Assembly: GCA_050298595.1 (NCBI GenBank)
Contig: JBNKUM010000035.1
Location: forward strand, 1-35,885
Origin: Gammaproteobacteria bacterium
GTDB lineage: Bacteria > Pseudomonadota > Gammaproteobacteria > GCA-001735895
Reading direction: 5' to 3'
DNA length: 35,885 nucleotides
The position numbers and the translations under genes were made by a program. Shown here one piece after another: positions 3,570 through 29,114 of this stretch; position 1 is the first letter of the stretch; every line of letters begins with the position of its first letter. The notes below the pieces were generated by a model that was not told where the DNA came from, did not search any database, and worked only from the letters and a program-made list of their open reading frames with translations.

Positions 3570-3585
3570 ATTTTTCTCCTTTTTT

Positions 3586-3663
3586 GCCTAACGCTGACAT
3601 AAGCGGCCGAGCGATAGCGAGGTCCGGCGACCGCAGGGAGCAAACTTAATGTTTTTGTTAGGC
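3586..3663 (-). repeat. attC site (cassette L1)
   Basis: Minus strand GCCTAAC (overlapping the L1 stop) ... GTTAGGC, 78 bp. Confidence 0.88.
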
Positions 3664-4062: not shown

Positions 4063-4073
4063 TTCTTAATGAA

Positions 4074-4146
4074 GCCTAACAGCTGATTATATTACACGCA
4101 CGCATATTGACTTATATTGCACGCACGTATATTGACTTATGTTGCA
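4074..4146 (-). repeat. attI-like site, left array (25-bp direct repeats + GTTAGGC core)
   Basis: Plus strand TTATATTACACGCACGCATATTGAC (4087-4111), TTATATTGCACGCACGTATATTGAC (4112-4136), TTATGTTGCA (4137-4146); the minus-strand core GTTAGGC at 4080-4074 matches the GCCTAAC of the first attC. Confidence 0.8.
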
Positions 4147-4290
4147 TTATAATCTCATTCATAGGTAAATTAATCAATGACCGCTCCATTGGCACACCAG
4201 AGACCTTCACTCTTCAATCTTGAACGACCGCTTCCAGGAAGGGCTGTTCACATCCTGAGCCTCAATGAGTAGTCGTTCCTGAACCAACAT

Positions 4291-5409
4291 TTAGCTGATT
4301 TCAGCAACTAAAAGTCGAGCAAAGGTCTGTAGATTAACAATCTCTTGTAATTTGAACCCACCATTTACTAGTAATTTACGCCATTCGCTTTCTGTGCGTT
4401 CACGTCCTCTCGTACCAATTAGCATTTGCATATCAAAACTGGCAACAGATGGATTAATATTTTGCTCTTCGGCAACAGTATCTATAATCGCAATGGTCGG
4501 TTTATTGGAACGGCATGCTGTACGCAAGTTTCTGAGTACCTGTTCTGCTTGTGTGTCACTCATGGCATGGAAAATGGCAATAAAAAGGTAAATATCATGT
4601 GAGGATTGTGAATCAGGTATAGATTCAAACATATCGCCACTACTGAAGGTGACCCGTGAGAGCAAATCATCTTCTTCTTTTCCTCGCCAATAATCGACTG
4701 CTTTTTCTATCACCTGTGGGCGATCAAATACAACTGCCTTGAGGTTCGGCTGTTGCTTAAGGATAGCTAAAGTTTTCTTGCCATTGGATCCACCAACATC
4801 GATAAGACGGTCAAATCGACTCCAATCGAAATCATTCAGATAGTCTACACCTGTCAGGGCTTCCACCGATTCCATAGCACCCGTAAATAACGCATCGAAG
4901 TGAGGGTGATTATCCATATAATCAAATAGTTCTGCTCCATGGCTTTGTACAAAGGGTACTTCTCCATTACGTAAAGCTGGACCTAGCGATTCAAACCATG
5001 GACGACTCATCTCGGGTGAGTTGTGGAGTAAAATCATATCTCGAACACTTTGCGGATGTTCTTTTTTAAGGCAGTTAGAAAGTTTATTGTTTTGAAAACA
5101 CCGCTCTGATAATTCTTCGAAAACACCAATTGATGCAAGCATACGTAACAATCTGTAAAGGTAATCAGCGTTCAGATTAAGTAGCTCTGCTATATGCTGA
5201 CTCGATTTTTTCTCATCATCAATTATATCTGCTATACCCAATTCGGCTGCTACATAAAGTGCGCGCGATTGCCAAAATGCACTACCTAACTGAATGACTC
5301 TGAATGGAGGGGGCACAAGCTTGTTGGGTAACATGGATAGCCAGTTCCCAAATTTCATGGCTCTTTGAAACAACTTAACCTTTAAAGTATTTCGTTGCAG
5401 TCGACTCAT
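4291..5409 (-). CDS. SAM-dependent O-methyltransferase (methyltransf_2 with dimerisation domain)
   Basis: SRALYVAAELGIAD, LYRLLRMLASIGVF, LIDVGGSNG, GDMF, GRERTESEW motifs. Confidence 0.92.
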   Translation of the reverse strand: MSRLQRNTLKVKLFQRAMKFGNWLSMLPNKLVPPPFRVIQLGSAFWQSRALYVAAELGIADIIDDEKKSSQHIAELLNLNADYLYRLLRMLASIGVFEELSERCFQNNKLSNCLKKEHPQSVRDMILLHNSPEMSRPWFESLGPALRNGEVPFVQSHGAELFDYMDNHPHFDALFTGAMESVEALTGVDYLNDFDWSRFDRLIDVGGSNGKKTLAILKQQPNLKAVVFDRPQVIEKAVDYWRGKEEDDLLSRVTFSSGDMFESIPDSQSSHDIYLFIAIFHAMSDTQAEQVLRNLRTACRSNKPTIAIIDTVAEEQNINPSVASFDMQMLIGTRGRERTESEWRKLLVNGGFKLQEIVNLQTFARLLVAEIS

Positions 5410-5410
5410 A

Positions 5411-6031
5411 TTATTTTTCCTGCGGATTCGCGCTCAATCCTATACTCAAAAGATGTCCATTGAACTTGGCTAATTGTTCAAGTAGATTTTCATCCATCTC
5501 CCGTCCTAGCTCTTCTTCAAACACTTGTTTAATCAGCATGGGCATCATGGCAAGACTAACAAAAGCGATTCTTACAATGTCTGCATCAATACCTTTGTCC
5601 ACTAATCCATGTTGTTTTAACAGTTCAATTTTCTCTCGACCACGTTGTCTACCTCGCTCCAATAGCTGGTTGATAAAGCGTTTCCCAGGCCCTTGATTGA
5701 GCGCTAAAATTTTTAGTATTAAAGTAGGAAATTTCGGGTTTGTGCTCATAGCGCGATAATAAATGCGGAAATAGGCTGTAAACCCTTCGGTGGAAGATAG
5801 CAAATCACTTTCCAGAACGTCGATTAAAGGCTGCAAGGTGCTTCGAATCATTTCCTCATACAGACCTTCCTTGTTACCAAAATAGTAACGGATCATTGAC
5901 ACATTTGTGTTGGCTGCTTCAGCGATCTTACGTGTGGTGACGTGATGGTAATCATCATTTAGAAAATACTGCATTGAAGCATCAATGAGTCTTTGCTGTA
6001 CAGCTATATCATTATTGCTATGTTCTTTCAT
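5411..6031 (-). CDS. TetR/AcrR family transcriptional regulator
   Basis: VTTRKIAEAANTNVSMIRYYFGNKEGL HTH; ends 1 bp before the O-methyltransferase start. Confidence 0.92.
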   Translation of the reverse strand: MKEHSNNDIAVQQRLIDASMQYFLNDDYHHVTTRKIAEAANTNVSMIRYYFGNKEGLYEEMIRSTLQPLIDVLESDLLSSTEGFTAYFRIYYRAMSTNPKFPTLILKILALNQGPGKRFINQLLERGRQRGREKIELLKQHGLVDKGIDADIVRIAFVSLAMMPMLIKQVFEEELGREMDENLLEQLAKFNGHLLSIGLSANPQEK

Positions 6032-6474
6032 ATAGAGAGATTAGCAGCCATCTGAAAATGGTAATAGAAATTTTATTAATCAATATCTGTATTTTGATTG
6101 AACCTGGATTTTGCAGTTGACCTTTAATTTCTGACGAAATGTAATGACAGGATTGAATCAATTATTGAATTTTCTATTTACCCATGGGATTACCGCAAAT
6201 CTATGTTCAACCTCGAATTCGAGGATCATCAGAAATACGTTAATTACAGCTGAATTTGGGTATTTTAGTTTTCCCAATCCCCGAATTGTGTCGAATAAAG
6301 CGTTAAAATTTGATGAAACCAGTAATACTGGAGCAGTTTTTTAATCGCACATTAAGTTTTAAGTATTCTCGACAGTCGCTCCGGTAGAAGGTTACCAACA
6401 CCCTACAGTGCAAGTATTAAAATTTTTTCCTGTCCCTGGTGTTATCTATTAAATGATCGAGTATCTCGGTCAAT

Positions 6475-6765
6475 TTATGTAGTTCCGCCCGTGATAAAAC
6501 TGAGAATTTCCTCTTCCTGTTCCAATAGCTGCTGTATGCTGCGATGTAAATTACCCAGAACGATGTGCTGATTAAATTGAACATATCCTTCTGAAAATGC
6601 GATAAGGCGGTTGTTTTTAACCAGGAATGTTCCATTGGTAGAATTCAAATCCTGCAGATATATACCATTTTTGCTCACGTGAATAGACGCATGATTTCTG
6701 CTTACAGTTGGGTCATCAAGTACTATATCTCCTTGCCTTCCAATCACTAAAAATCGTCCGGGCAT
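6475..6765 (-). CDS. stand-alone FHA domain protein
   Basis: IGR, VSRNHA, DLNSTNGTF conserved FHA motifs. Confidence 0.88.
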   Translation of the reverse strand: MPGRFLVIGRQGDIVLDDPTVSRNHASIHVSKNGIYLQDLNSTNGTFLVKNNRLIAFSEGYVQFNQHIVLGNLHRSIQQLLEQEEEILSFITGGTT

Positions 6766-6933
6766 CTTTAATTTCCAATTTTCTGTGAGTTTTTTCAGGT
6801 GTTCGGAACATATCAGGTTTATCGATTACCCCCCCCACTCAGAATCCATACGTCGGATTTCGAGGCAACCTTGCTCCTGGCGTCCCTGCCTGGAGGCTCT
6901 TGTATGGCATACGTTTCCAGAACCACATCCTGG

Positions 6934-6997
6934 ATACTACGCTCAATGGTTAGGCATATCGGTGAATGGGACACACTGGATTTGTGCGATATTCACA
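6934..6997 (-). promoter_or_regulatory. activator-dependent promoter, copy 1 (tandem TGTGA-type boxes)
   Basis: Minus strand TGTGAATATCGCACA, 7 bp, TGTGTCCCATTCAC, 22 bp, TAGTAT (-10). Confidence 0.65.
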
Positions 6998-7339
6998 TTT
7001 TTATCAGGGAGGTACTGACTGATTAACTTTTCACAATCGAATTTTTCTCTCGCAATTATCCATCTCAATCGACTGCTTGTTGCTATATTCCAAACGCATT
7101 CGTTCTAAATCCCCTGTTTTTTTCTGCCGTATTCAGTGCTTTTGGACACTGAATTGAACAATATCTAAAACGTTTAGTTTATTTGATAAGGTTGGACATG
7201 TTTTTCAATAAAAGGTTGAAGGTGACAATCTATAAGCAGGAAAGTGCCATTGGTTTAGTTCAGTTCACGAAGATAGATAGCTCTCTCCATGCTATTGATC
7301 ATATTGAAAAATTTTCGATAATTTTTTTTGGCTAATTAT

Positions 7340-7422
7340 CTTTCAGATTTATTAACGTCCTTGTCCCAGGCATCCTGCCTGGTATCCCTGGCCAGGCAGG
7401 ATGCCCGGCTTCACTTCCTTGT
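7340..7422 (-). ncRNA. candidate CsrA/RsmA-binding small RNA or leader (GGA-rich); ends approximate
   Basis: Five GGA motifs; perfect 14-bp stem GGCATCCTGCCTGG/CCAGGCAGGATGCC (7369-7405) presenting AGGGA in the minus-strand loop; no ORF of 60 aa or more downstream before promoter copy 1. Confidence 0.45.
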
Positions 7423-7428
7423 GTGGTA

Positions 7429-7492
7429 ATAGTATGGAATATAGGTTGAAAGTTCAGTGAATGGGGTACAGCTTATTTGTGTGATATTCACA
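7429..7492 (-). promoter_or_regulatory. activator-dependent promoter, copy 2 (tandem TGTGA-type boxes)
   Basis: Minus strand TGTGAATATCACACA, 7 bp, TGTACCCCATTCAC, 22 bp, TACTAT (-10); same geometry as copy 1. Confidence 0.65.
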
Positions 7493-7558
7493 TATTTTTC
7501 AACAACTGGTTTTTAAAATCTGATAGTGAGTAGGGACTGATATCAGGGTATAGGGTGA

Positions 7559-8221
7559 CTACCAGGCTTGAGGTAGATCTTTTTTCAGGATGATATGTTT
7601 ATTTTGAGAGTCAATATAACCACCTACGGTTAGATCCTTAAGAATGCGGCTGACCATTTCTCGTGACGAGCCCACCATACTGGCAATATCCTGGTGGGTT
7701 AATCGAATCTGAATGATTCGCTCACCTTCTTCATTATCAGCAAGTTTGTTGAGCGTGTAAGCTACTCGACCATAGACATCGTTCAGTGCCAGGCTCTTGG
7801 TCATTTCTGTTAGATTACGTACTCGCTCAACTAGAAGTCCAAGAAATCTTACCGCCAATTCGGGATGATCCAGCAAGCAGGCCTCGAATTTCACCCTGGA
7901 GAGAAAGGCAACGTGCACCGGTTCAATAGACATGACAGAGGCTGAACGAGGAATTTTTCCTATTATTGCCATTTCCCCAAATATCTCGCCAGGTCCCTGG
8001 ATGTTGAGCACAATCTCTTTACCCAAATCATCCCCTGCATAGATTTTGACTCTACCGGCCAGCAAAACGTACAAGGTATCACTTTCATCCCCTTCATTAA
8101 TCAGCACGCTGTTCTTAGGAAAGTGTTTGTGTACTCCTTTGCTTGCCAAATAGTCGATTTCATCCTTAGTTAATGCTGTAAACGACGACTCCCCCTGTCC
8201 GCCTTCTCCAGGTATAAGCAT
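7559..8221 (-). CDS. Crp/Fnr family cNMP-binding transcriptional regulator
   Basis: GEIFGEMAIIGKIPRSASV cNMP pocket; THQDIASMVGSSREMVSRIL HTH. Confidence 0.95.
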   Translation of the reverse strand: MLIPGEGGQGESSFTALTKDEIDYLASKGVHKHFPKNSVLINEGDESDTLYVLLAGRVKIYAGDDLGKEIVLNIQGPGEIFGEMAIIGKIPRSASVMSIEPVHVAFLSRVKFEACLLDHPELAVRFLGLLVERVRNLTEMTKSLALNDVYGRVAYTLNKLADNEEGERIIQIRLTHQDIASMVGSSREMVSRILKDLTVGGYIDSQNKHIILKKDLPQAW

Positions 8222-8310
8222 AGTTGTTCCTTTAATTAGTTATTATTCGTGAATTTTGTAAACCATCATTATTATATTGAGGTTCTTCGAGGCATAATAT
8301 AACAGAAAAT

Positions 8311-10509
8311 ATGCTTAAAAAATCTACAAACCATCCACCTTATCGTTGGCGTAATGGCATTATTCTTGGCACTTTAATAGCCTTGCTGGGGTTGGCTAGC
8401 CTGATAATTCCACCAATTGCCCGACTGGAACCAGATATTGGCCTTAAATGGTTATTCGTTCTGCGTGGATCACGTCCAGCCCCATCAGATGTTGTTATCG
8501 TTACCATAGATCGTGATTCATCAAAAAAACTTCAACTACCAAATATACCTCGAAAGTGGCCGCGTGGGTTGCATGCAAAGTTAGTACGAATACTGCATTC
8601 AGCGGGTGCTAGCGTAATCAGTTTTGATATGATTTTTTCAGACTATCGAGACCCACAACAGGATAAGGAATTCGCTCAGGCTATGCAGGAGGCAGGCAAC
8701 GTTATTCTGTTTGAATACCTGCAAAGTGAAAATCAGCAATATAGCGGAAGTAAAGGCAATACCGCTATTCACATTGAGCAAAGACTTTTACCAATTCCGG
8801 AATTTGCCCATAGCGCAGTTGCTGTGGCTCCATTTAATCTCCCCAAGATACCTGAAAGAGTCAACCAGGCCTGGTTATTCAAGACTGGTGCGGGAGACCT
8901 GCCGACACTTCCTGTGGTCGCTTTGCATCAACATCTGGCAGCCAATTTTTCACAGCTTAAAAAACAGATTCATGAAATTAGCGATCCAAAAAAATTACCT
9001 GACTGGCTGCGACAAAATCAAGCACCTGAAAGGCCGGATGATTTTGCTAGCAGGCTACATCAATTTTTTCTCAATCATGATGTTTACAGCCGCCAGCTTG
9101 CCGACAGCGTCGAGCATAAAAAAACTGCACTTGGTATTTTACTCAACACGCACCTGCTTGGTAATGGCAGCGGTATTTATCTTGACTTCTATGGTCCGGC
9201 GCGCTCGATTCCGACAGTCCCTTATCATCAGGTCCTGGCAAAAACAAGCCCGTTGGATTTCAAAAACAAAGCCGTTTTTATTGGGTTTTCGGAGCGATTA
9301 CAGCCCCAGCAAAAAGATGGTTTCTATACTGTATTTACAGATGAGGAAGGGCTGGATGTGAGTGGAGTTGAAATCATGGCCACCACTTTCGCTAACCTGC
9401 TGGAAAGAAAAGTCATCAATCCATTGGCTCCACCTTATAATATTCTTCTCATTGCACTGTTTGGTTTGCTGCTGGGTGTATTTCTGTATCGAATAAAAGG
9501 TTCCAAAGCGATTCTTTTTTCAATCCTGATTGCAGGTATTTATCTGGGCACTAGCTACTGGCTTTTTGCCAGTCAATCGCAATGGGTACCCCTGATTATT
9601 CCATTGATGATTCAACTGCCTTTCACTTTGTTACTCGCATTGCTATCACATTATTTAATCAGCCATCGTGAGCGTAGTCGACTACATTACGCTTTCAAAA
9701 AATACGTACCTGAGTATGTTGCTAACACTGCAGCCACGACAGGTTTTGATAGCCTTAAAAGTAAGGCAACAATGTTTGGTGCCTGTCTGGCCACCGATGC
9801 CGTTGAATATACCCCGTTTTCAGAAGCTCAAACACCCAGGGAATTACATGATCATTTAAACGATTATTTCCAGCAACTTTTTATCCCGGTACACCAACGA
9901 GATGGACTGGTGGTGGATGTGATTGGAGATGCCATGCTAGCAGCCTGGGTTGAGGGTAATGAAAAAGATCTGCGGCGCGCTGCCTGTGAAGCTGCGCTTG
10001 AAATTCAGCAAAGATTAAATCAACAACCCCGTTTTCTACCGACTCGTATTGGCCTGCATTGCGGTGAAGTGTCCGTAGGTAATGTAGGTGCTGGCGAACA
10101 TTTTCAGTATCGGTTTGTGGGTGACGTTGTCAATACCTCAACCCGTATCGAAGGCCTGAACAAACAACTGGGTACCCAGATTCTGGCATCTGCTGAAATG
10201 CTGGAAGAGTTAGATGACCTGAACGTTCGAGAAGTGGGGGATTTTCGACTCAAAGGCAAGGGTAAGGCGATCACAATGTATGAACTTAAAAATCAGCCTA
10301 TTCCGCAACAGCATCTGGAATCATTTGATGCTGGACTTAGACAATTCCAGAATCAAAACTGGTCAGCGTCAATCGAGATATTCAGTCAACTGCTCGAAAA
10401 CAACCCGGAAGATGGTCCCTGCCTGTTTTATTTAACGCTTACACAACAATTTCAACGCAACCCTCCGCCAAAAAGCTGGGATGGAGTGGTGAGCATCACA
10501 CTAAAATAA
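8311..10509 (+). CDS. CHASE2-domain class III nucleotide cyclase with C-terminal TPR-like tail
   Basis: WPRGLHAKLV..L...GA.VI.FDM.F CHASE2 motif, GVEIMAT, 3 TM segments, ATD / IGDA / RIGLHCG / GDVVNTSTRIEG / LKGK catalytic motifs. Confidence 0.93.
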   Translation: MLKKSTNHPPYRWRNGIILGTLIALLGLASLIIPPIARLEPDIGLKWLFVLRGSRPAPSDVVIVTIDRDSSKKLQLPNIPRKWPRGLHAKLVRILHSAGASVISFDMIFSDYRDPQQDKEFAQAMQEAGNVILFEYLQSENQQYSGSKGNTAIHIEQRLLPIPEFAHSAVAVAPFNLPKIPERVNQAWLFKTGAGDLPTLPVVALHQHLAANFSQLKKQIHEISDPKKLPDWLRQNQAPERPDDFASRLHQFFLNHDVYSRQLADSVEHKKTALGILLNTHLLGNGSGIYLDFYGPARSIPTVPYHQVLAKTSPLDFKNKAVFIGFSERLQPQQKDGFYTVFTDEEGLDVSGVEIMATTFANLLERKVINPLAPPYNILLIALFGLLLGVFLYRIKGSKAILFSILIAGIYLGTSYWLFASQSQWVPLIIPLMIQLPFTLLLALLSHYLISHRERSRLHYAFKKYVPEYVANTAATTGFDSLKSKATMFGACLATDAVEYTPFSEAQTPRELHDHLNDYFQQLFIPVHQRDGLVVDVIGDAMLAAWVEGNEKDLRRAACEAALEIQQRLNQQPRFLPTRIGLHCGEVSVGNVGAGEHFQYRFVGDVVNTSTRIEGLNKQLGTQILASAEMLEELDDLNVREVGDFRLKGKGKAITMYELKNQPIPQQHLESFDAGLRQFQNQNWSASIEIFSQLLENNPEDGPCLFYLTLTQQFQRNPPPKSWDGVVSITLK

Positions 10510-10668
10510 TATTGAAATCTAATTATTTTGCTAACAAGATTTCACATTATGCAAGAGAAGCGTTAACATTCAATTTGTTAATGGTGTGTTTATCAGGGAA
10601 GAGCAATAAAATTATTTGGTTAAGTCAGGAAAGACTGATAACAAAAATAAATTTATTCAGGAAATTCA

Positions 10669-13600
10669 ATGCAACCGTACCTTCGAATAGCGCCTCAGCT
10701 TTCCCATTATGTATTAAGTGGGATAGTCGTATTCGTCCTGATTTTTCTTCCAGCAAATCAACTCTATGCCGCCAGTTGTGAGTCTGTTGCCAGGCTTGTT
10801 TCACTAGAAGGTTCTATAGAATATAAAACAGTAAATACTGAAAACTGGATTCCAGCAGTACTGGAGCAGGAATTTTGTACCGGGGACGCCATACGCTCTG
10901 GGCGAGATAGTCGAGCGGCACTGCGCTTAATCAACGACACCTTAATGCGCCTTGATCACAGCACTGCAATCATTTTTACTTCTATCACTCAAAAAGAGCA
11001 TTCATTCCTCGATCTGCTCAAAGGCGCACTGCATTTTATTAGCCGGGTACCTCGCAGTCTGGAAGTCAATACTCCTTATTTGAACGCAGCCATTGAAGGC
11101 ACAGAATTTGTCATTCAGGTAAAAGAAGACAGTGCGGAAGTTACTGTGTATGAAGGCAAGGTTGTGGCCAGCAATGCTTCGGGCAGTATTGATTTGATCA
11201 GTAACCAGACGGGGTCAGCAGCATTCGGTCAGGCTCCGATACGGATTGCTGTGGCGCGTCCGCGCGATGCAGTGGCCTGGACCCTGTATTACCCGCCTTT
11301 GCCCGCGCAACAGGATCAGGCGGATAAGCTTGCCCATCAGACCATAGATGCCATTGTCAGGAATGATATAGATCAGGCTGTTACTCTGGCGCAACAGGCC
11401 ATAGCCAGCAATCCACAATCAGCGGCCGCATATATGGCACAGTCCTATATCGACCAGGCTCGTTTTGATATCCCGGCAGCGCTGGAAAATAGTCGCAGGG
11501 CGGCAGATTTAGCGACACAGGATGCTATTACCCAGGCGCGGCTGGCCGAAGTCCTGTTAATGACCGGCGATAGCGAAGCCGCCAGAGCAGTCGCAGAAAG
11601 TGCGGTACAGATTGAGCCGACATTGGCACATACGCAAACCGTGCTTGGCTTTTCCTCTCTACGAGACGTCAACCTGGATGATGCAGAATCCGCATTCAAT
11701 CAGGCAATTCGGCTGGATTCAGCCGCACCTTTACCGCGTCTGGGTTTAGGTCTGGTTAAAATCCGCCGTGGCAATCTCAAAGCAGGCCGGGAAGAGATTG
11801 AAACTTCGGCCCTGCTTGATCCTAATAGTGCCCTGCTGCGTAGTTATATGGGTAAGGCATACTATGAAGAAAAGCGTGGCAAACTGGCATCCGAGCAGTT
11901 TGCCATGGCCAGGGAACTGGACCCCAATGATCCAACCCCATACTACTACGAAGCCATCCTCAAACAGGTTGACAACCGCCCGGTGGAGGCGCTGCAGGAT
12001 ATCGAAAAGTCCATTCAGTTGAATGACAATCGAGCCGTTTACCGCTCCAGGTTACAACTGGATGAGGATGAGGCTGCACGCAGCGCCAGCCAGTCACGCA
12101 TCTATCAGGATCTCGGTTTCGAGCAATTGGCCCTGGTGCAAGGCGTGAAATCAGTCAGCGCTGACCCTGCCAACCACTCCGCTCACCGGTTTCTGGCCGA
12201 CATATATACTTCACGTCGTCGGCACAGTATCGCGCGGGTTAGTGAATTGCTGCAGTCACAACTGCTGCAACCGAATAATATTAATCCGCTGCAACCACAA
12301 CTGGGCGAGGCTAATCTATTCGTTCTGGAAGGGGCTGGCCCGGCTGAAACCGGCTTTAACGAGTTCACCTCGATGTTCTCCAGCAACAAACTGGTTTCGA
12401 ATGTCTCTTTGGTATCGGGAAGCAATGACACCCTGGGTGATGAACTAACCGTCTCTGGGCTAACAGATCAGCTGTCATTCAGTCTTGGCCAATACCACTT
12501 CGAAACGAATGGCTTTAGAGAAAATAATGATGTGCAACACGATATCTATAATGCGTTCTTTCAGTTTACTCCGTCTTCGGCTTCCAGCTTTCAATTAGAA
12601 GTCCGTCACCGAGAGACCGAGAGCGGTGACTTGCGGCTAAACTTTGATCCAGCCATATTCAGGCCCAATGAGCGTAGTGATATCGAGCGGGATTCCTTAC
12701 GCCTCGGCTTTCATCTCAAGCCTGAAGCCAATAGTGATGTCATTGGCTCACTGATCTATGCGGAGCGCAAAGCAACCAGATCGGACAGCATAACTTCTAC
12801 CCCCGTACCTGGAGTCTCTTTGACAACTGCCGATACCTCAGAATATGTTAGTGATTCTTATTCTGCTGAACTGCAGTATCAGTATCGCATGGATCGGCTT
12901 AACTGGGTCCTTGGCGCGGGGTACTTTGATCAAAATCACACCTCGACTGTTGCTCTGATTGAAAGTCTGACTATTGACCCGGACCCTCCCATCACAGAGG
13001 TCTTTGAACCGACGATAACCAGGGGAGGTCCTCGACATGGCAATGCCTATCTGTATTCCAATATTAGATTCAAACCTCACTTTACTTTGACCGCCGGCCT
13101 AACTTACGACTCCTTTGAGGACAACGTTTCAGATGATGACCGGTTTAATCCCAAGCTGGGAGTGATGTGGGAATCGCTCGGTGGAACCACTGTTCGGGCG
13201 GCCTGGTTCAAAACTCTTAGACGCCCCTTTGCCTCGGACCAGACTATCGAGCCCACACAGGTGGCCGGTTTCAACCAGTTCTTCGATGATTTGAATGGTA
13301 CCAGATCAACGCGCTACGGAGCTGCGCTGGAACAACGCATCAATCAATCGTTATTTGTCGGGGTAGAGACCAGTTGGCGGAAGCTGGAACTAAATACAGA
13401 GCAGCAGGATGAGCGGTTACACCGTAGCTATGCCTCCTGGGCCGTGAATGAAAATCTCTCGCTCAATGCGGAGTATCTGTTCGAAGATTTCGATATTGGT
13501 ATTGTAAATGAAAGTTTGTTAAATGATCTGAGGACCCGACGCCTGCCGCTGAGCATGAATCTTATTTGGCCTAACGGCCTCATCGCCAAGATACAAACCA

Positions 13601-13842: not shown

Positions 13843-13934
13843 TTATGCGAAAAACATAAAAAGCATGTTCTGTTGAAGTTCCCCTGGTAAAGGTACAGCA
13901 ACAGTTTTATTAATCAGGTTTTACGGAGAAAAAA

Positions 13935-14210
13935 ATGGATAACCATTTCAGCAAAAAAAAATATCTACTTATGACTTTGGGAGTTATTACAGTCGGAGTA
14001 GCTGTCGCGGCTAGTACAATGTTTTATTCTGATTCGACGTTTTATTCTGCTACGTTGCTTTATTCTGCTTCGACACGCCTCTGCTATAAAACGAAAATAG
14101 ATAATGGAGAAAGGTATGCCATCTGCCGTAATCGTTCCTATCCTTGCTATTTCTATTTGGAAAGAGATGGGTGTCCTTGCCCAGACGGCCAAATGTCATG
14201 TCAATTTTAA
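13935..14210 (+). CDS. small exported Cys-rich protein with FYS repeats
   Basis: GGAG RBS, KKK + hydrophobic N-terminus, three 18-bp repeats (14022-14075), six Cys in the C-terminal 42 aa. Confidence 0.65.
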   Translation: MDNHFSKKKYLLMTLGVITVGVAVAASTMFYSDSTFYSATLLYSASTRLCYKTKIDNGERYAICRNRSYPCYFYLERDGCPCPDGQMSCQF

Positions 14211-16141: not shown

Positions 16142-16201
16142 TTTTTTCTTCTCGGTGTGGTTAATGTGGCTGTTGTCAGCACGTTTTTTATATTTCGTCT
16201 T

Positions 16202-17041: not shown

Positions 17042-17058
17042 TAAACTGCCTGTGTTAT

Positions 17059-17877: not shown

Positions 17878-17942
17878 ACTATAGGCGTCTTAAGTTGGTA
17901 AAAATATTGCGCTGCACAAAGTCGCATGCGAGGTTATTTTTG

Positions 17943-19743: not shown

Positions 19744-19875
19744 AAAAGTTATTTGAAATCATAATTGTTGGCATCATAGCATTTAAGCGCGATGAAAAAA
19801 CCTATTAGGGCCTGTTAACACTAATTTAATTATCACTGCTGGAGACCATTTTCCCTCCAGCGGCTTTAGATCACT

Positions 19876-21756: not shown

Positions 21757-21873
21757 GGGTGGATGTCGATAATTTTGAAGCGCGCATTATAGATGAATTT
21801 TACGCTGTGGTGTTTTTGTTTAATGTAGCTTGATGCAGGATAAGGCTAAAAGCTGACTCAGCAGGATTCTGAT

Positions 21874-23715
21874 TCAACGAAACGTTTTTATAAACTGTTG
21901 AATCGGCATGGGACGATGAAACAGGTACCCCTGAAACTCCCGGCAGCCTCGGTTTTTTAACAGCTCAAATTCTGCGCTGGTCTCAACACCTTCGGCAATG
22001 ACCTTTAGATTAAAATGGTTAGCCATCGAGAGGATGATTTCAACAATAGCGGCATCATTCGGGCTGCTATCAACGTTGTGAATAAATGTACGGTCAATCT
22101 TGATGCGGTCTACAGGCAATTGCTTGAGATAAGCCAGTGACGAATAGCCAGTGCCAAAATCGTCGATGGAAAACCTTACACCGATCTCTCTTAACCTCAT
22201 CATCTTTGTGATCGTTGTCTCTACATCTCCAAGCAGCGTGCTTTCGGTGATTTCGAGTTCCAGGCTGGTCGGAGAGACCCCGCTGTGCTCCAGTATAGAT
22301 ATGACTCTTGATACGAAGTCTGCCTGGTGGAAATGTTTGGCGCTAAGGTTGACGGCGATAAGCGGGTTGTCGCAGATGACCTTTTCCTTTTTTAGTAACT
22401 TGATCATTTCACAGGCTTTTATTAATACCCAGTCACTCAGGGTCACAATAAAGCCCGATTCTTCAGCCATAGGTATGAATGCCGCAGGAGAAATCAGGCC
22501 TTTTTCAGGATGTTGCCATCGAATTAAGGTTTCCGCTCCAATACAATCACCGTTGGCGTCTACCTGAGGTTGAAGATAGAGTTCAAATTGATCCTTATTG
22601 AGAGCATCGCGCATCTCTGTATCCAGGTTTAATCGCTGCTCTATTTCAGCGGTCATAGATTCTTCATAAAAGTGCACGGTGTTTCGACCCAGCTGCTTTG
22701 CTTTTTGTAAAGCAGAGCTGCCCATGCTCATAATTGTGTCGGGGCTACCACTCTGCGCATTAAAAACCACAATGCCGATACTGGCTGCAACCGATATATA
22801 GCGTTCATTAATTCGGTTTGGACTTTCAATTTCCATTAACGCTTTACGAGCAAGATCGATAGCTAACTGTTTTCCTGATTCATCAGTTTCCACAATATTT
22901 GAATACAATATGCCGAACTCATCGCCTCCCACCCTGGCAATGCTTCTGTATGTGCTTTGTTGAACCGATAGTCGGCTGGCTATTTTTTTAAGTACGCTGT
23001 CTCCAAAAAAGTATCCTAGTGAATCATTGATATCCCTGAAATTATCCAGGCCAATATATAGCAACAGGCTAAACGGTTTTTCAGCATTATCTGTTTTATT
23101 AGCCCTGTCTATTTTAAGTTGTAAATGTCTTCGATTGGGTAAGCTGGTCAGGTCATCATGGTAGGCTAAATACTCAATCCGTTTCTCGGCGATTGATCTT
23201 CTTTGCATTTCCACCACAATACGCTCATGCTCCATAGCTGCCTGGCATCCTTTATCCAGACGTTCAAATACGGGAACCAGTGCATAGATCAGTTCTTCGG
23301 GTAAGGGGGCGACGGCTCGTTCAAGAATCAATACCCCTGAATGTTCCAGTGGATAGGTATGATAGTAAAGCTCATTATCTTTAAAGAATTGTGTTCTAGT
23401 GTGGGGAACGGGGTCCTGAAAATATGCAGTCAGCCACTCACCCAGGCCCTGTGTTTGCAGCAGATTCTTTGCATTACCTGATGGCATGAAAAAATAAAAC
23501 GACTTTTCCGGGCCCTGGTGAGATTCAACAGGAATGATGTCTTCATCATTATAATGTCTGAAATAATAAATGCGGCGAATAGAAAGTCGACGTAAACAGA
23601 CTTTCATGAAGTGACGAAGCAAGGGGATCAACTGTGGATTCAGGCCTATATTCATCGCCAGTTCATGCTGAATCGACATCAGGCTCAAGGTATCCATCTG
23701 ACGGCCTGTAGTCAT
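21874..23715 (-). CDS. GGDEF-EAL diguanylate cyclase/phosphodiesterase
   Basis: AYHDDLTSLPNR, ARVGGDEF, ETLIRW, DDFGTGYSSL, AEGVET. Confidence 0.95.
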   Translation of the reverse strand: MTTGRQMDTLSLMSIQHELAMNIGLNPQLIPLLRHFMKVCLRRLSIRRIYYFRHYNDEDIIPVESHQGPEKSFYFFMPSGNAKNLLQTQGLGEWLTAYFQDPVPHTRTQFFKDNELYYHTYPLEHSGVLILERAVAPLPEELIYALVPVFERLDKGCQAAMEHERIVVEMQRRSIAEKRIEYLAYHDDLTSLPNRRHLQLKIDRANKTDNAEKPFSLLLYIGLDNFRDINDSLGYFFGDSVLKKIASRLSVQQSTYRSIARVGGDEFGILYSNIVETDESGKQLAIDLARKALMEIESPNRINERYISVAASIGIVVFNAQSGSPDTIMSMGSSALQKAKQLGRNTVHFYEESMTAEIEQRLNLDTEMRDALNKDQFELYLQPQVDANGDCIGAETLIRWQHPEKGLISPAAFIPMAEESGFIVTLSDWVLIKACEMIKLLKKEKVICDNPLIAVNLSAKHFHQADFVSRVISILEHSGVSPTSLELEITESTLLGDVETTITKMMRLREIGVRFSIDDFGTGYSSLAYLKQLPVDRIKIDRTFIHNVDSSPNDAAIVEIILSMANHFNLKVIAEGVETSAEFELLKNRGCREFQGYLFHRPMPIQQFIKTFR

Positions 23716-24860
23716 TTACTGAGCCCTCCAATCACGGTGGTTTTGTTCAGGAACTGGATGTTGCCCTGTGAGTTATTCGCTATTTCACCAATCGATAATA
23801 CGCCTATGATTTTTGCTTTTTCAGGCAGTTTTTTTCGAATATTTTCAAGTTCCAGATGAAATTGATCAGCAAAGATTAATTTACGCGAAACGCAGTCGAC
23901 GATAAATATGTATCGCTCTTCATCAGTGTCATAGATGGGGGAAAGCTTTTCACACAATTGCGCAGCGGCCTGACCGGCTGCTGAGATTAACTGCTCTTCA
24001 TCGGCATGCAGGACATAAACCATCGCATTGCTTGGGACAGTACCTGCGCATTCAATAGAGGTGCCCTTACAGGAAATTAGATCGCGTACCAGATACTCAC
24101 ACTCCAGTTGTTCCAGGCCAATGGGGTATTGACTTGAGGTATTAAAAAAATTGTCTGATTCAAAAACATTGTTAGAGTGTTGCTCCAGGATGTCTTTATA
24201 AAAGGGTAGAGCAGGCTGAAAATTGATATCATGAATTTGATTGTTTTCAGCTCTGGTTACTAAAAAGGGCCCGGCAACAGCTTCCCAGCCATGGCGATAA
24301 CAGGTGGTAAAAGAGGGTGACTGGAAGATTAAAAGCGCGGCATTGTCCCAACCACCTTCAGCAGTGAAGATATTGGGCCTGGAGGAGAAATCATGGTACC
24401 CGCTGCCGCAGCCGAGAATATTCATATCAGGCCCTACCTGGTCGAACAGGCAGCTTATGAAATCATCCACGCCACTGGATAAACCATCAATAAAGAGTAA
24501 GGCATTGTTGGTGGGTGCTTCCCTGTTTAGCCTGTTCGATAACACATTGCACAAATCATTTTCAGGTTTATTGATTTCGTTAATTAGAAATACCGACCCT
24601 GCTGCTTTCAATCCACAGATAAGAGTAGCCCCTGGGTATAGGTCGGTTTCGTGTATTACTGCGGGTAAAACAACGGCTGCTGAAGGTACAGGCTGGGCTT
24701 TCAATAGCGCAGGTAGAGAATTAAAGTCGATATCACTTTCGCTACCAATCAACAGCAAAAGCGCCTCAGGATCTTTCTGCAGGGCGATAGTAATAGCAGA
24801 TTGTATGCCTTCTAGCGTTCCAGAAGGGGAAAGCTGAATACTGGTGAAATATTGGGTCAT
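23712..24860 (-). CDS. FIST-domain sensory protein (NosP-like)
   Basis: LLFIDGLS, HGW...GPFLVTRAENN, YPIG, DCVSR, GVLSIGEI; 4-bp overlap with the GGDEF-EAL gene. Confidence 0.88.
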   Translation of the reverse strand: MTQYFTSIQLSPSGTLEGIQSAITIALQKDPEALLLLIGSESDIDFNSLPALLKAQPVPSAAVVLPAVIHETDLYPGATLICGLKAAGSVFLINEINKPENDLCNVLSNRLNREAPTNNALLFIDGLSSGVDDFISCLFDQVGPDMNILGCGSGYHDFSSRPNIFTAEGGWDNAALLIFQSPSFTTCYRHGWEAVAGPFLVTRAENNQIHDINFQPALPFYKDILEQHSNNVFESDNFFNTSSQYPIGLEQLECEYLVRDLISCKGTSIECAGTVPSNAMVYVLHADEEQLISAAGQAAAQLCEKLSPIYDTDEERYIFIVDCVSRKLIFADQFHLELENIRKKLPEKAKIIGVLSIGEIANNSQGNIQFLNKTTVIGGLSK

Positions 24861-24949
24861 TGGTGAAATTATAAAATTTCTTTGTCAGAGTATACCTCCC
24901 CATATCGATCTTGCCGGTCTTTTTCCCTCAACTGTAGATGATTGTCAGT

Positions 24950-25972
24950 CTACCAGTCTTCCGGTTTGCCTACATTGATGTTTATGCCCTGAGACAATAA
25001 CTCCTGCTGTCGTTGACGTGACAGATCCAGATAGCTGGTAAACTTCAGGTGGTTATTGTCCAGCGCCATGCGAATGACATTACCAAAATGGAATGGATAG
25101 AGCATAGATTCAACGCGAGATACCTCCTTGCCCTCATCGAATAGCACAATACCGGGACGGTAGCTCATAGCCAGGTCTGCAGCCAGTTTAAGCGGGGTTG
25201 TCGGTTTGCCGTCAAAACCTGTAATTGGCTTATCAGATTTAGCATCCAGCCGGATCAGAGTCAGTCGCTTGAGCAGTTCACGTATTTCAGGGCGTTGCAT
25301 CATCTTTTTATGGAAATGGTCACACTCATTGCAATCATTGTCTTCAAACAATAAGGCGACAGGGCCCTGTAGTGTGCTTAAATCGGTGGCGGATTTGATC
25401 AATGGGTCCTGGATGAATTGATATTGCCCATACTGCATATGTGTGCGTTTGAAGTCGCTGAAACTGCTGTTCAGGTAAGCTTTGCTTTGGACAAAATCCA
25501 GAGCCTGTTTAAACGCTTCAGGAGAACGATAGCCATTCAGTCGCAATACAGTCTGGTTTTTATTATTCAAAAAGATGATAGTTGGGGTGTATTGAATCTT
25601 GAGATAGCTGGACAAAGCCCTTTCGGTAGTGTTGAGGTCTTCTGACATTGCTATCTCACGGTCTCCACGGATATTGATGGCGATACTGTCGAAGTTTTGC
25701 TGAATCTGGCTTTTCAAGGGTTCCTTATTGAAGTTCTCGCTCAACATGCGATTGCAATAAGGGCAAGCATTCAAATGAAAGAATAGCAGTACGTGCTTAT
25801 TACTATCAGCGGCTTCCTCCACATCATCGGCAATTTCGAGAAAAGACTGCTTAAACCAGTCGGGTATTTCGTAGGCAACGCCTCCCGTCACGCGACCGGT
25901 TTCGGCTGCAGATAGCGCCTGAGAGCTGAAAATCAGAAGAAATATGATGAAATGAGAGGTTTTTTTTAACAT
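24950..25972 (-). CDS. periplasmic double thioredoxin-fold protein (SoxW-like)
   Basis: Signal peptide, PDWFKQSFL, CPYC, YTPT cis-Pro loop, second domain CNEC. Confidence 0.8.
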   Translation of the reverse strand: MLKKTSHFIIFLLIFSSQALSAAETGRVTGGVAYEIPDWFKQSFLEIADDVEEAADSNKHVLLFFHLNACPYCNRMLSENFNKEPLKSQIQQNFDSIAINIRGDREIAMSEDLNTTERALSSYLKIQYTPTIIFLNNKNQTVLRLNGYRSPEAFKQALDFVQSKAYLNSSFSDFKRTHMQYGQYQFIQDPLIKSATDLSTLQGPVALLFEDNDCNECDHFHKKMMQRPEIRELLKRLTLIRLDAKSDKPITGFDGKPTTPLKLAADLAMSYRPGIVLFDEGKEVSRVESMLYPFHFGNVIRMALDNNHLKFTSYLDLSRQRQQELLSQGININVGKPEDW

Positions 25973-26040
25973 GTCAGTCTTGAGTTTTTGTTATACGCCA
26001 ATGATGATATAGAAGACTAACAAAAAATAGGCTTTATTCC

Positions 26041-26688
26041 ATGTGTGGACGATTTGCGTTACAGGCGAATGCGGAACAGATAGCAGAATACCTCGCTACT
26101 GAAGTGCCAGAGCTTTATATGCCGAGGTTTAATATAGCACCAACAACACCGGTACTGGCATTAACCGCAAGCGAACTGACCTTTTTTAGCTGGGGTCTGG
26201 TGCCCAGTTGGTCCAAGGATGTCAATATAGGTAGCAGAATGTTTAACGCACGTGCCGAAACGATTAATGAAAAACCATCTTTTAAAAATGCCTATAAACG
26301 TCGACGCTGCCTGATTCCGGCCAGTGGGTTTTATGAATGGAAGGCCGAGCAGGGCGGCAAACAGCCGTATTTTTGTCATCTTGAGCGGCCTATATTCAGT
26401 TTTGGCGCGATCTGGGAGCATTGGTCAGACAGCATGGGTAACGAACTGCAAAGCTGTTCTATTATCACACAGGAATCGGCCGGGGCAATGCGAGAGCTGC
26501 ACGACCGAATGCCGCTGGTGATCCCGGAAAATCTACGCGATTTATGGCTGGATCACAGTGACGAGAGCACCGAAAGAGCCGATTATTGTCTGCATCACTC
26601 AGACTCTGACTTCAGCATGTATGCGGTGAGTAAGAAGGTCAGCTCGGCGCGTAACGATAGTCCGGATCTGGTGCAAAAAATGGAATAA
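26041..26688 (+). CDS. SOS response-associated peptidase (SRAP/YedK, abasic-site protection)
   Basis: MCGRF N-terminus, FNIAPT, WGLVPSW, NARAET, GFYEW, HDRMP. Confidence 0.95.
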   Translation: MCGRFALQANAEQIAEYLATEVPELYMPRFNIAPTTPVLALTASELTFFSWGLVPSWSKDVNIGSRMFNARAETINEKPSFKNAYKRRRCLIPASGFYEWKAEQGGKQPYFCHLERPIFSFGAIWEHWSDSMGNELQSCSIITQESAGAMRELHDRMPLVIPENLRDLWLDHSDESTERADYCLHHSDSDFSMYAVSKKVSSARNDSPDLVQKME

Positions 26689-26837
26689 ACCGTATATTTA
26701 GTGCGACATATATAGACAAATAAAATATTAGCAGAAAAGAAAACCAGGAATTACATAGACCTTTTCGTCTACAATCAACAAAAACAACTATAAGCAGACA
26801 GGCCATAATCAGTGCTGCAATAACATAAGTGGGGAAT

Positions 26838-28439
26838 ATGGTTTTTTTTAAAATCTTTCTCAAGCTGATACTGTTGTTCGGTATTCTGCTTGCAGTTGTA
26901 GGCCTGTATTTCTATGACAAACACTCGCCGGGACCTGAATTAGAGCAGGAGTCCTTTACGGTAAATGATGTTACCGGTCTTAATTCTATCCATGTTGCCA
27001 GCATCGTCCAGCCACTATCCGAGCAGGAAATTGTCGATGCTATCACCAGCAGCAGCGGCCCCATATCTATCGGTGGCGCTCGCTTCAGTATGGGAGGGCA
27101 GAGCGCCTATCCTGACAGCCTTCACTTTGATATGCGCAGTTTTGATCAGGTGGTTGATTTTGATCCCAAGAAACGCCTTGTCACCGTTCAGTCAGGGATA
27201 ACCTGGAGGAAGTTACAGGAATTTATCGACCCGTATGACCTGTCGGTGAAAGTCATGCAGGATTTTAATAACTTTACTGTGGGCGGGTCGTTAAGTGTTA
27301 ATGCACATGGACGCTTTGTAAGAACTGGAGCCATTATCAATTCAGTAAAGTCCTTCAGGATTATACTCGCCAGTGGGAAGGTATACGAAGCCAGCAAGAC
27401 AAATAACAGCTCGCTGTTCTATGGTGCTATCGGTGGTTATGGTGGGTTAGGCGTAATAACCCACGTGACTCTGGAGCTGGAGCAAAATATCCCCATCGAG
27501 CGACAGGTGACTCAAATTGAATTTCATAGCTTTACTGAGCACTTTCGTAAAAATATCCAGTATGACGACAGTATAGTTTTGCATAATGCCATCCTCTATC
27601 CCCCGAGTTATGAATCCGTACTGGATATAAGCTGGCGAAAAACAGATAAACCGCTGACTGAAAAAGCACGCCTTCACGATAAAAAATCGATGTCGATCTG
27701 GAAAAATATAGCGGTTGATATGATGTCTGAATCTAATCTGCTGAAACGATTGCGCAAAAACCTGATAGACCCAATGATCTATAACGATGATGCAGTGGTC
27801 TGGCGCAACTATGAAACCAGTTACGATCTGCACGACTTTGGTTTCATCTCTACCAATGATCAAACACTGGCGCTCAGGGTCTATTTTGTGCCAATAGAAG
27901 AATTTGAAATCTTTGTGCTTAAGATGCGTGACATCTTTATTCGTACCGACGCCAGTATTTTGAATATCTCAATCCGCTATATCCCGCAGGATACAGGCAG
28001 TTTGTTAGCCTGGGCCAAAACCGATGTGTTTTCATTTACCATTATTTATCATCTGGATAAAACCCCGCAGTCGATGGAAAAAACTCGTGACTGGTCATCG
28101 AAATTGATACAGGCAGCGGTTGATTCTGGTGGTAGTTATTACATGCCGTTTCAAATTCACGAAACTACAGAACAGTTTGCCCAGGCCTATCCAGATGCTG
28201 GATATTTTTTCAGATTAAAAGAACAGGCAGATCCAGGCAATCGCTTTAATAATATGTTGTGGCTAGAGCATTACGCAAAAAATACTGCTGCCAAATCCGC
28301 CTACTACGCAGCAAAGAAGGAAGCATTAAAAGCTGATCAAGACAAGCAGTCCGAACCATCTGCTGCCTTAGAGCAAGCGGATCAATCTGAAAACGCACAA
28401 ATCATACAAACCGAAGCAGAGCTTGAAACTCAGCAATAG
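26838..28439 (+). CDS. membrane-anchored FAD-binding oxidoreductase (VAO/PCMH family)
   Basis: GGARFSMGGQ, TVGGSLSVNAHG, GGYGGLGVI, DPGNRFNN; ATG 26838 preferred over GTG 26829. Confidence 0.88.
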   Translation: MVFFKIFLKLILLFGILLAVVGLYFYDKHSPGPELEQESFTVNDVTGLNSIHVASIVQPLSEQEIVDAITSSSGPISIGGARFSMGGQSAYPDSLHFDMRSFDQVVDFDPKKRLVTVQSGITWRKLQEFIDPYDLSVKVMQDFNNFTVGGSLSVNAHGRFVRTGAIINSVKSFRIILASGKVYEASKTNNSSLFYGAIGGYGGLGVITHVTLELEQNIPIERQVTQIEFHSFTEHFRKNIQYDDSIVLHNAILYPPSYESVLDISWRKTDKPLTEKARLHDKKSMSIWKNIAVDMMSESNLLKRLRKNLIDPMIYNDDAVVWRNYETSYDLHDFGFISTNDQTLALRVYFVPIEEFEIFVLKMRDIFIRTDASILNISIRYIPQDTGSLLAWAKTDVFSFTIIYHLDKTPQSMEKTRDWSSKLIQAAVDSGGSYYMPFQIHETTEQFAQAYPDAGYFFRLKEQADPGNRFNNMLWLEHYAKNTAAKSAYYAAKKEALKADQDKQSEPSAALEQADQSENAQIIQTEAELETQQ

Positions 28440-28489
28440 CAGAGTAATATCAGCCCCGATACGGTTAAAGATAAAAAATGGAGTAAACA

Positions 28490-28876
28490 ATGCGCATCTT
28501 ACACACCATGCTACGAGTCGGCGATCAGGATCGCTCGATCAAGTTTTATACCGAAGTTTTAGGTATGAAGCTAATTCGTCAAACAGACTACCCTGAAGGG
28601 AAATTTACCAACACCTTCATCGGCTATGGCGATGAATCCGAACAGGCGACAATAGAATTTACCTATAACTGGGATACCGACAGCTACGACCTCGGCAATG
28701 GCTATGGACATATCGCGCTAGAGGTCGATGATGTGTATGCAGCCACCGAGGAGATCCGCAAACGAGGTGGCAAGATCATACGCGATGCCGGGCCAATGAA
28801 TGCAGGTACCACCATAATCGCTTTCGTCGAAGACCCCGATGGATATCAGATAGAGTTGATTGGCAAAAAGTCCTGA
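28490..28876 (+). CDS. gloA: lactoylglutathione lyase (glyoxalase I)
   Basis: [32 protein letters not shown]. Confidence 0.97.
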
Positions 28877-29018
28877 TCGATATTTGGGGTTTTGGAGTGG
28901 TAACACACGCTATGGGAGATGGATTAACTGTAAATTGTTAAAAAATAGGAAAAGGAAAATGAGGAGTGAGGAGAGGTTGATTCAGTATCATAAGAATCAG
29001 GGAATGCTGCGGAAATTT

Positions 29019-29092
29019 TGCAACATAAGTCAATATACGTGCGTGCAACATAACTCAATAATTGTGCGTGTCAAATAATCAAGCTGTTAGCT
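29019..29092 (+). repeat. attI-like site, right array (25-bp direct repeats + GTTAGCT core)
   Basis: TGCAACATAAGTCAATATACGTGCG (29019-29043), TGCAACATAACTCAATAATTGTGCG (29044-29068), ATAATCAAGCT then GTTAGCT (29086-29092), complementary to AGCTAAC of the first attC. Confidence 0.8.
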
Positions 29093-29114
29093 GCAAAACA
29101 GGAATGGGAAGATT

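Follow-up and report, generated by a model that had tools for sequence, protein, structure and literature searches.

The window analyzed here is the complete 35,885-nucleotide contig JBNKUM010000035.1 of a gammaproteobacterium (contig C35 of the draft genome G000, which has 119 contigs). It contains two integron cassette arrays, in which open reading frames (ORFs) are separated by attC recombination sites and the start of each cassette complements its own attC, and both arrays are headed by a copy of a short repeat module that resembles an integron attI site. The two copies are inverted with respect to each other and face outward from ~25 kb of ordinary chromosomal genes. These encode an O-methyltransferase, a TetR regulator, a Crp-type regulator, a CHASE2 cyclase, a FecR/TonB-type protein and a Cys/Met pyridoxal phosphate enzyme, and they continue with panC, panB and genes for ABC-F, SRAP and FAD-binding proteins and a glyoxalase (gloA). 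GC content is 0.44-0.51 between the modules, compared with 0.37-0.40 in the cassette arrays. Below, contigs named without a genome belong to G000, contigs of relatives are written as genome:contig, L numbers label module loci, and G001 is a sister species.

The modules at 4074-4146 (minus strand) and 29019-29092 (plus strand) share two 25-nt direct repeats and a crossover box that ends with AGCTG/TTAG, where the slash marks the predicted point of strand exchange. A repeat search of the window returns them as inverted arms of 63 nt (4084-4146 and 29019-29081) that are 89% complementary, in agreement with the sequence and coordinates that an initial annotation had given for this pair; the O-methyltransferase and gloA neighbors that it named were also found at the distances listed in Table 1. 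Allowing up to three mismatches, the 25-mer matches the window three times, compared with 0.00 matches expected from 100 shuffles. Read toward the cassettes, the module consists of a left arm, one or two 25-nt repeats (TGCAACATAAGTCAATATnnGTGCG) and a simple site (TGTCACATAATCA(A)GCTG/TTAGG). An ACATAA word recurs with 25-nt spacing through the repeats and the simple site, and within the simple site it opposes the GTTAGG box as an imperfect inverted partner. Two 25-nt repeats are present in both window copies and in those on C64 and C22 (minus strand), and most other copies have one. No Rfam family matches the window at gathering scores.

Table 1. Coordinates of the modules, cassette arrays and neighboring genes in the window
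Feature	Coordinates	Strand	Remarks
Left attI-type module, core	4074..4146	-	Direct repeats 4146-4122 and 4121-4097; simple site 4096-4074
Left simple site, TGTAATATAATCAGCTG/TTAGGC	4096-4074	-	Predicted crossover between G 4080 and T 4079
Left arm of left module (..GGAGCGGTCATTGATTAATTTACCTATGAATGAGATTATAA)	4147..4194	-	Kept in most integrase-less copies
U repeat upstream of left module	4195..4270	-	Dispersed repeat with small hairpins
Right attI-type module, core	29019..29092	+	Direct repeats 29019-29043 and 29044-29068; simple site 29069-29092
Right simple site, TGTCAAATAATCAAGCTG/TTAGCT	29069-29092	+	Predicted crossover between G 29086 and T 29087
Diverged left arm of right module, TTGATT-N17-GGGAAT plus 11-nt insertion	28981..29018	+	Also in the G001 ortholog
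Left cassette array, 4 cassettes	1511..4079	-	Cassette starts complement their own attC starts
Left-array ORFs	3658-4062; 3087-3569 (DUF2569); 2116-2982; 1587-2009	-	
Left-array attC sites	3586-3663; 2999-3085; 2011-2108; 1511-1582	-	
Right cassette array, at least 12 cassettes	29087..35885	+	Runs off the contig
Right-array cassettes 1-6		+	TIR-domain protein, unknown, two GNAT acetyltransferases, cupin, YezG-like immunity protein
Right-array cassettes 7-12		+	Unknown, TPR, unknown, HEAT-like, unknown, partial
Right-array attC sites, first six	29898-30008; 30498-30549; 31033-31082; 31580-31631; 31981-32040; 32405-32456	+	
Right-array attC sites, last five	32852-32911; 33720-33782; 34136-34187; 34881-34968; 35561-35669	+	
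Cassette 12 of right array	35664..35885	+	Also the first cassette behind the C64 module
O-methyltransferase ORF	4291-5409	-	End is 145 nt from first repeat of left module
Glyoxalase (gloA) ORF	28490-28876	+	End is 143 nt from right module
Ordinary chromosomal genes between modules, ~25 kb	4291..28876		Outside the element

The identification of the module as an attI-type site is based mainly on its junction with the cassettes. In both window copies the GTT core is complementary to the attC of the first cassette, as the initial annotation had noted: the left junction word GTTAGGC complements GCCTAAC at the start of the first attC, and the right junction word GTTAGCT complements AGCTAAC at 29898. 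A cassette start that is complementary to its own attC (TTAGGC with GCCTAAC and TTAGCT with AGCTAAC) is the trace expected of integration at G/TT, and this rule is kept along both arrays through all 15 attC sites read in the window (4 left, 11 right). We collected 53 distinct copies with a recognizable junction, 15 from G000 and 38 from relatives. Among them AGCTGTTA is conserved at 0.79-0.98 around G/TT, and conservation drops to the background level from +4 onward. An exact complement of GTTNNNN occurs within 3 kb downstream in 31 of the 45 copies that could be evaluated (at least 600 nt of downstream sequence), whereas 1000 trials with permuted words give 4.96 on average and 12 at most, and the reversed word is found 7 times. 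For G000 itself, the count is 9 of 14 copies. Both strands of both window modules have folding z-scores of +0.99 to +1.41, and the attC site at 29898-30008 scores -7.3; the lack of a fold fits a duplex attI and not an attC, as a matter of consistency only. The crossover thus lies at G/TT in a GTTRRRY-type box to which cassettes are joined exactly, which supports assignment of the module as an attI-type site. By analogy with attI1, its 25-nt repeats may be accessory integrase-binding sites.

The window pair is part of a larger family. Searching G000 for the 25-mer with up to three mismatches, as the initial annotation had proposed, gives 13 matches (reversed control, 0), and a profile of the whole module (nhmmer, E < 1e-3) finds 16 loci on 14 contigs, most of which head a series of captured cassettes. 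Twelve of 61 related genomes have the module, which occurs in 7 of 13 other genomes of the genus, in 4 of 19 of a second genus in the same family and in none of 25 from other families. Relatives in the two genera can have up to 14 or more modules each. Pattern scans add 33 loci in genome contigs and 9 in metagenome contigs, and the matches are mostly labeled as metagenome-assembled genomes of Gammaproteobacteria. A second same-contig pair in G000 (C22:12408-12528 on the minus strand and 26929-27047 on the plus strand, 14.4 kb apart) is outward-facing like that of the window. The initial annotation had framed the window copies as twins that bracket a block of core genes. This arrangement now appears incidental, with the pair accounting for 2 of 16 loci and with the left copy closer in pairwise comparison to the C64 copy than to the right window copy. 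On metagenome contig L112, two tandem modules (1087-1190 and 502-573, minus strand) lie ~600 nt apart, an arrangement equivalent to a single cassette between two attI-type sites.

Conservation extends further upstream than the ~70 bp to which the initial annotation had confined it. A left arm of ~48 bases (..GCCAGGAGCGGTCATTGATTAATTTACCTATGAATGAGAATATAA) is common to most copies and includes the bases upstream of the left window module; the arm of the right module has diverged and fails a strict version of the arm motif. By inspection, the arm has the form TTGATT-N17-GAATAT with a TG ahead of the second hexamer and is oriented toward the cassettes. Judged from these hexamers, it resembles an extended -10 promoter that would be aimed at the cassettes; a sigma-70 consensus scan flagged no cassette-directed promoter in either window module. 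Of the 60 copies whose upstream sequence is long enough, 33 have the arm motif and 26 the promoter-like geometry, and both features are missing from the two intI-linked copies in this set (2/2). Ten of 15 G000 copies have the motif, and those on C100 and C26 are each one base short of it. When the copies are compared pairwise, the same left boundary recurs at -91/-92 from the junction. Past it there is a dispersed repeat that we call U, a miniature inverted-repeat transposable element (MITE) or unique sequence, depending on the copy.

The U repeat (~90 nt) has two hairpin-like halves, each with GGAGCGGTCATT-like words, and it lies upstream of many modules. It also occurs elsewhere in G000, on C55 (three times), C16, C40, C28, C15, C86 and C8, and, where C26 (135-226) and C70 begin, immediately past an intI 3' end and its terminator. 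The latter placement could be taken as a sign that the module originated by deletion of intI between short repeats. This idea is weakened because U is a dispersed repeat and because the intI ends on C26 and C70 are of the C99 type and do not belong to the cognate lineage. The MITE (~170 nt, with ends CAGGCTGTGTGAAAAC...GTTTTCACACAGCCTG) is found at or near -91 of several modules, on C85, C31, C8, C32 and C100 of G000 and at L031 (G001:C146, 900-1070). Its position may reflect either a target preference or copying along with the module.

Comparison with the sister species indicates that cassettes change at a fixed site. The gloA region of G001 is 92% identical to that of the window, and a module is located at the same place as the right copy. 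The first cassette behind it is unrelated, and divergence begins exactly from G/TT, which is the result of a comparison that the initial annotation had suggested. The latter had also considered that an intI might simply have been deleted at this position, and neither a module nor an intI was found at the gloA locus in six other relatives inspected. Cassette 12 of the right array provides a second case. Its counterpart on C64 is 97.7% identical over 221 nt with homology starting at GTT. In the window its left neighbor is the attC at 35561-35669, and on C64 the attI module takes that position. This is the product expected of excision from an array and reinsertion at an attI elsewhere.

The modules themselves also differ in location between the two genomes. 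Three of the 17 module loci in the sister genome map next to a module locus of G000: L059 corresponds to gloA on C35, L048 to C100, and the sequence downstream of L041 matches C85 and C30 by BLAST. For L042 and L057, the flanking sequence maps to C118 and C110, and G000 lacks a module at both places; in these comparisons the end of similarity was seen and the far boundary of the insertion was not. The small number of shared loci and the moduleless sites on C118 and C110 indicate that copies have been gained, lost or relocated within the time over which the species diverged. Directly after the flank that C118 shares with L042, at ~68340-68410, there is an attC-like 3' half (..GAGTCCAGGCG/TTAGAGC), and the array here is headed by something other than the module.

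The initial annotation reported no intI beside the window pair, and this holds for all of C35 (35,885 bases) and beside all 16 G000 loci, where no match to the integrase profile TIGR02249 was found at E <= 0.001. Elsewhere in G000 three matches exceed the cut-off, on C89 (466 bits), C75 (374 bits) and C99 (361 bits). The C89 and C75 genes are intact, the former with no stops, the C99 gene has two stops, and there are many IntI fragments, including those on C101, C100, C53 and C77. A complete integron, with intI, attI and at least one attC, is present on C89 and not in the window: intI is at 72502-73446 (minus strand), the attI crossover is near 73848, and attC sites occur at 74746, 76184 and 77088. 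The attI regions of C53 and C75 have repeats that differ from those of the module. At C100:91205 there is a decayed intI fragment whose divergent attI-like region has ATTAATTTACCTAT and an AAGCTG/TTAGGC crossover in common with the module.

Homologs of the module adjoin an intI in relatives only. At three places in relatives or metagenome contigs they are ~40-50 nt from a divergent intI start: in G023:C6 (module 107-197 on the minus strand, intI ORF from 237 on the plus strand), in G001:C168, where a diverged module lies ~50 nt from the intI start, and at metagenome locus L116, whose IntI is 80% identical to that of G023. The repeats on G001:C168 are of a CATATCACAATAT kind that is also found in the G000 copies on C8 and C22 (minus strand). 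Within the pattern-scan sets, intI adjoins 1 of 33 genome-contig loci and 1 of 9 metagenome loci. The module-linked IntI of G023 has an N-terminal extension of ~150 amino acids. It shares 55.6% amino acid identity with its counterpart in G001 (L029, 237-1704, and L034, 3270-1781, respectively), and in both the catalytic C-terminal region is interrupted by two short insertions, of which the second shifts the frame before the catalytic tyrosine. This second insertion is 53 or 56 nt long (both 3n+2) with a TAG and two small palindromes, and it could represent a pseudogene state common to both genomes, a small hairpin element that is mobile, or an insert that is bypassed or excisable. Its core word occurs at five other places in G000, two of them just downstream of the C75 intI/attI and the others on C53, C9 and C74; the C53 occurrence is ~120 nt from an attC match (C53:1039-1120). 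In two relatives, at L031 (G001:C146, 344-700, minus strand) and L030 (G012:C106, 9419-9826), the module junction has the sequence G/TTGAACTAAACCGCTTTGCGGTAGC, and next comes a gene for a tyrosine recombinase other than an integron integrase (TIGR02249 score 47 bits, cut-off 265). G000 has this junction word, GTTGAAC, at C100:159519.

Taken together, these observations make it probable (roughly 0.8) that each repeat is a complete double-stranded attI-type site belonging to a lineage-specific, distributed multi-attI integron. Such a site comprises one to two (rarely more) 25-nt repeats with ACATAAG, which by analogy with attI1 may be accessory integrase-binding sites, and a simple site ACATAATCA(A)GCTG/TTAGG that is held in the 25-nt register, with strand exchange predicted between G and TT. 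In G000 and its relatives it mostly lacks intI, usually has the conserved left arm, and has multiplied to ~16 loci per genome. An integron integrase encoded elsewhere would then insert excised cassettes at each copy by attC x attI recombination, and the outcome would be many small arrays per genome instead of one. Integrase binding to the repeats, the integrase that acts on them, promoter function of the arm and the route of spread all enter this proposal as predictions. We further entertain, at slightly less than even odds, that the integrase-less platform of promoter-like arm, repeats and simple site evolved into a self-standing unit that multiplies in this gammaproteobacterial family, so that one or few integrases, whether resident or transient, may load more than 12 sites. 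It would then be a general, as yet unrecognized source of one class of the attC-site clusters that have no integron integrase (CALINs). The initial annotation had also envisaged a distributed integron, served in trans by one resident integrase. Its first part agrees with the attI module at 16 loci; its second part, service in trans by a resident integrase, is plausible, although the cognate IntI is found in this genome only as a fragment on C101.

Several observations weigh against this reading. None of the 16 G000 loci has an adjoining divergent intI. The repeats in the attI region of the complete C89 integron differ from those of the module, and the nearest G000 homolog of the G023 IntI is a truncated copy (C101:62708-63418, 63% identical, residues 41-277). 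No evidently functional cognate integrase was found in G000, G023 or G001, because the C101 copy is truncated and the G023 and G001 frames are broken before the catalytic tyrosine. G004 has no TIGR02249 match over the cut-off despite five module matches. The complement rule is broken by 14 of the 45 copies, and the attC model finds no site behind C22 (both strands), C101, C8 or C109, which may mean that part of the copies have decayed or are empty. Both contigs end inside the cassette that the window shares with C64, and part of the identity could therefore reflect assembly collapse. Finally, no more than 33 of 60 copies have the left arm, so that the integrase-less copies may not all have a single origin.

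An unlikely alternative is that each array is the relic of a complete integron from which intI was deleted independently in place, with no spread of sites and no present activity. The genome does contain IntI fragments and a stop-bearing copy in many places (C99 with two stops, and C101, C100, C53 and C77), relatives have homologous modules that are linked to intI, and 27 of the 60 copies lack the arm motif and have unrelated upstream sequence, all as expected if losses occurred locus by locus. Yet no IntI match lies beside any of the 15 G000 copies with a junction, and 12 of these 15 have the same arm and the same -91/-92 boundary. The arm is also found in distant metagenome copies and in 0 of 2 intI-linked copies tested. 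This distribution and the common boundary point to descent from an ancestor that was already integrase-less. In-place loss also does not account for the sister genome, where only 3 of 17 loci are next to a G000 module and the L042 and L057 sites are moduleless in G000, or for the gloA locus, which has neither intI nor module in the six other relatives.

Much less probable is that the module is the end of a transposon or a MITE-like element whose repeats bind a transposase, with the cassettes as incidental cargo or neighbors. The module is multi-copy, ~92-117 nt long and has subterminal direct repeats, a MITE or U repeat lies beside many copies, and the window includes an ORF resembling a REP-associated tyrosine transposase (232-1242; 40 bits, cut-off 80). 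Nevertheless, its similarity stops at G/TT inside a GTTRRRY-type box, and 31 of 45 copies continue with bases that match the start of the following attC, the signature left by an integron integrase. A second inverted end is absent, no transposase gene recurs near the copies, and three homologs are in the canonical position beside intI.

A marginally weaker candidate still is a non-coding cassette or unusual attC, in which case the true chromosomal insertion point would be at the left edge of the module. The GTTAGG box at its end, as in attC, and the imperfect inverted repeat TTGATTA ... TAATCAA within it are compatible with such an origin, but there is no RYYYAAC partner upstream, no GTT at the -91 boundary, both strands fold worse than shuffles (z from +1.0 to +1.4), and the same site stands beside intI in relatives. 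An assembly or binning artefact, a concern of the initial annotation that might be fed by a draft of 119 contigs with several copies near contig ends, can practically be dismissed: the copies are distinct from one another in sequence and in their flanks, an independent assembler yields a contig (possibly of the same sample) that spans gloA, the module and the first cassette (27000-29941) with no differences, and the sister species has the module at the orthologous gloA locus.

The cassette arrays have additional features. The five short attC sites (50-52 nt) in the window rest on inspection and the start/attC complement rule only. Three of them (30495-30546, 32402-32453 and 34134-34185) are nearly identical (92-100%) attC-like sequences of ~52 nt, AAACATGATAATGAGACC...GGTCTCGTTTATCAT, that form a second attC class beside the long sites; two further short sites are looser, and a model of the long sites misses the short class. 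The attC covariance model was built from 10 window sites and is over-fitted, such that its window matches to the training sites occur by construction. Outside the window its scores are weak, and it was applied to 150 of 759 genome candidates; the arrays of 1-3 cassettes that it detects elsewhere in G000 are consequently lower bounds on size. It does detect sites that follow the complete C89 integron, and others in clusters on C18, C62 and C93. An attC scan that demands complementary outer boxes was rejected after it missed known sites, because the outer half of R' in an array belongs to the next cassette. Contig joints and loose ends at 29019, 29053 and 29085-29090 and at the short attC sites were considered as locus variants and also rejected, because their mismatches mark other repeat copies, such as the C64 locus; they are not counted as signs of excision. 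The gene that follows gloA in G010 is at C100:121782-123163 in G000; no attC match was found in C100:108000-123200, and the distal end of the right array was not located.

Two cassettes may have roles in phage defense. The first cassette of the right array (29115-29903) encodes a TIR-domain protein (TIR_2, 66.6 bits), and the left-array cassette at 2116-2982 has a faint CAP12/Pycsar TIR match (16.6 bits) that is below the cut-off. At the far end of the left array, the transposase-like ORF on the plus strand (336 amino acids; cut-off and score as above) has no Pfam match, and the 5' end of a paralog lies just upstream of it as a direct repeat (54-139, 77%).

The closest known comparison is attI1 of class 1 integrons, which has a simple site (L/R) and the accessory direct repeats DR1 and DR2. 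Like attI1, the module has a crossover at G/TT in a GTTRRRY box, is read as a duplex site, and carries an L-like box (CATAAT) in inverted orientation a few bases upstream, with direct repeats of the same word further upstream. Cassettes enter at the module, and the start of the first cassette complements its own attC. Unlike those of attI1, its repeats are 25 nt long in a strict 25-nt register and have an unrelated sequence, most copies have no adjoining intI, there are ~16 per genome, and integrase binding is a prediction. In sedentary chromosomal integrons, of which the Vibrio superintegron is an example, a single platform is joined to one long array. The system described here is likewise chromosomal, with cassettes that are mostly unknown or defense-like and lineage-specific attC families, but it differs in its numerous intI-less platforms and in the shortness of its arrays (4 and at least 12 cassettes in the window).

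CALINs are defined as at least two attC sites with no integron integrase nearby (within 4 kb in IntegronFinder; Cury et al. 2016, PMC4889954), and both window arrays are of this form. That survey reports that 95% of CALINs have no recognizable intI pseudogene nearby, and the window arrays resemble them in this respect. Its attI sites were located only by exact match to those of classes 1-3, so it says nothing on attI at the heads of CALINs; the window arrays differ from CALINs as surveyed there in being headed by a conserved multi-copy attI. Loot et al. (10.1101/2022.09.11.507474) describe cassette insertion at non-att sites (attG), which yields single attC sites lacking integron integrases (SALINs), as a source of isolated cassettes and small CALINs. 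Both situations have dispersed integrase-less cassettes that arise through an integrase acting away from its own platform. The attG sites of that account are unrelated genomic sequences that mostly receive single cassettes, whereas the target here would be a dedicated conserved module of ~92-117 nt with repeats that is reused at many loci.

The Delta-attI-type cassettes of mobile integrons (Sci Rep 2026, PMC12901181) are an example of attI in more than one copy that recombines off its canonical position. These are partial attI sequences inside one plasmid-borne array next to intI1, unlike the modules in G000, which are whole sites at the heads of separate chromosomal arrays. In a 2026 preprint on the recovery of cassettes (10.64898/2026.03.17.712381), each platform is taken to have a single attI site. 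No description of multi-copy integrase-less attI sites was found in open-access papers and preprints, which is weak evidence of novelty.

CALINs and complete integrons are about equally common, most CALINs have no intI remnant nearby, and their origin is an open question (PMC4889954; 10.1101/2022.09.11.507474). A conserved multi-copy attI at the head of one class of CALINs makes the origin of that class directly testable, and it would represent a third route to CALINs besides in-place loss of intI and insertion at non-att sites. The junctions also provide a recipe for finding new attI sites from sequence alone: multi-copy modules whose similarity ends at G/TT and whose next bases complement the following attC. 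The reading predicts integrase-driven inversions between inverted copies. For the organisms concerned, distributed sites would remove the bottleneck of a single array, where expression is limited to cassettes near one attI, and if this is true each site would have its own first, expressed position.

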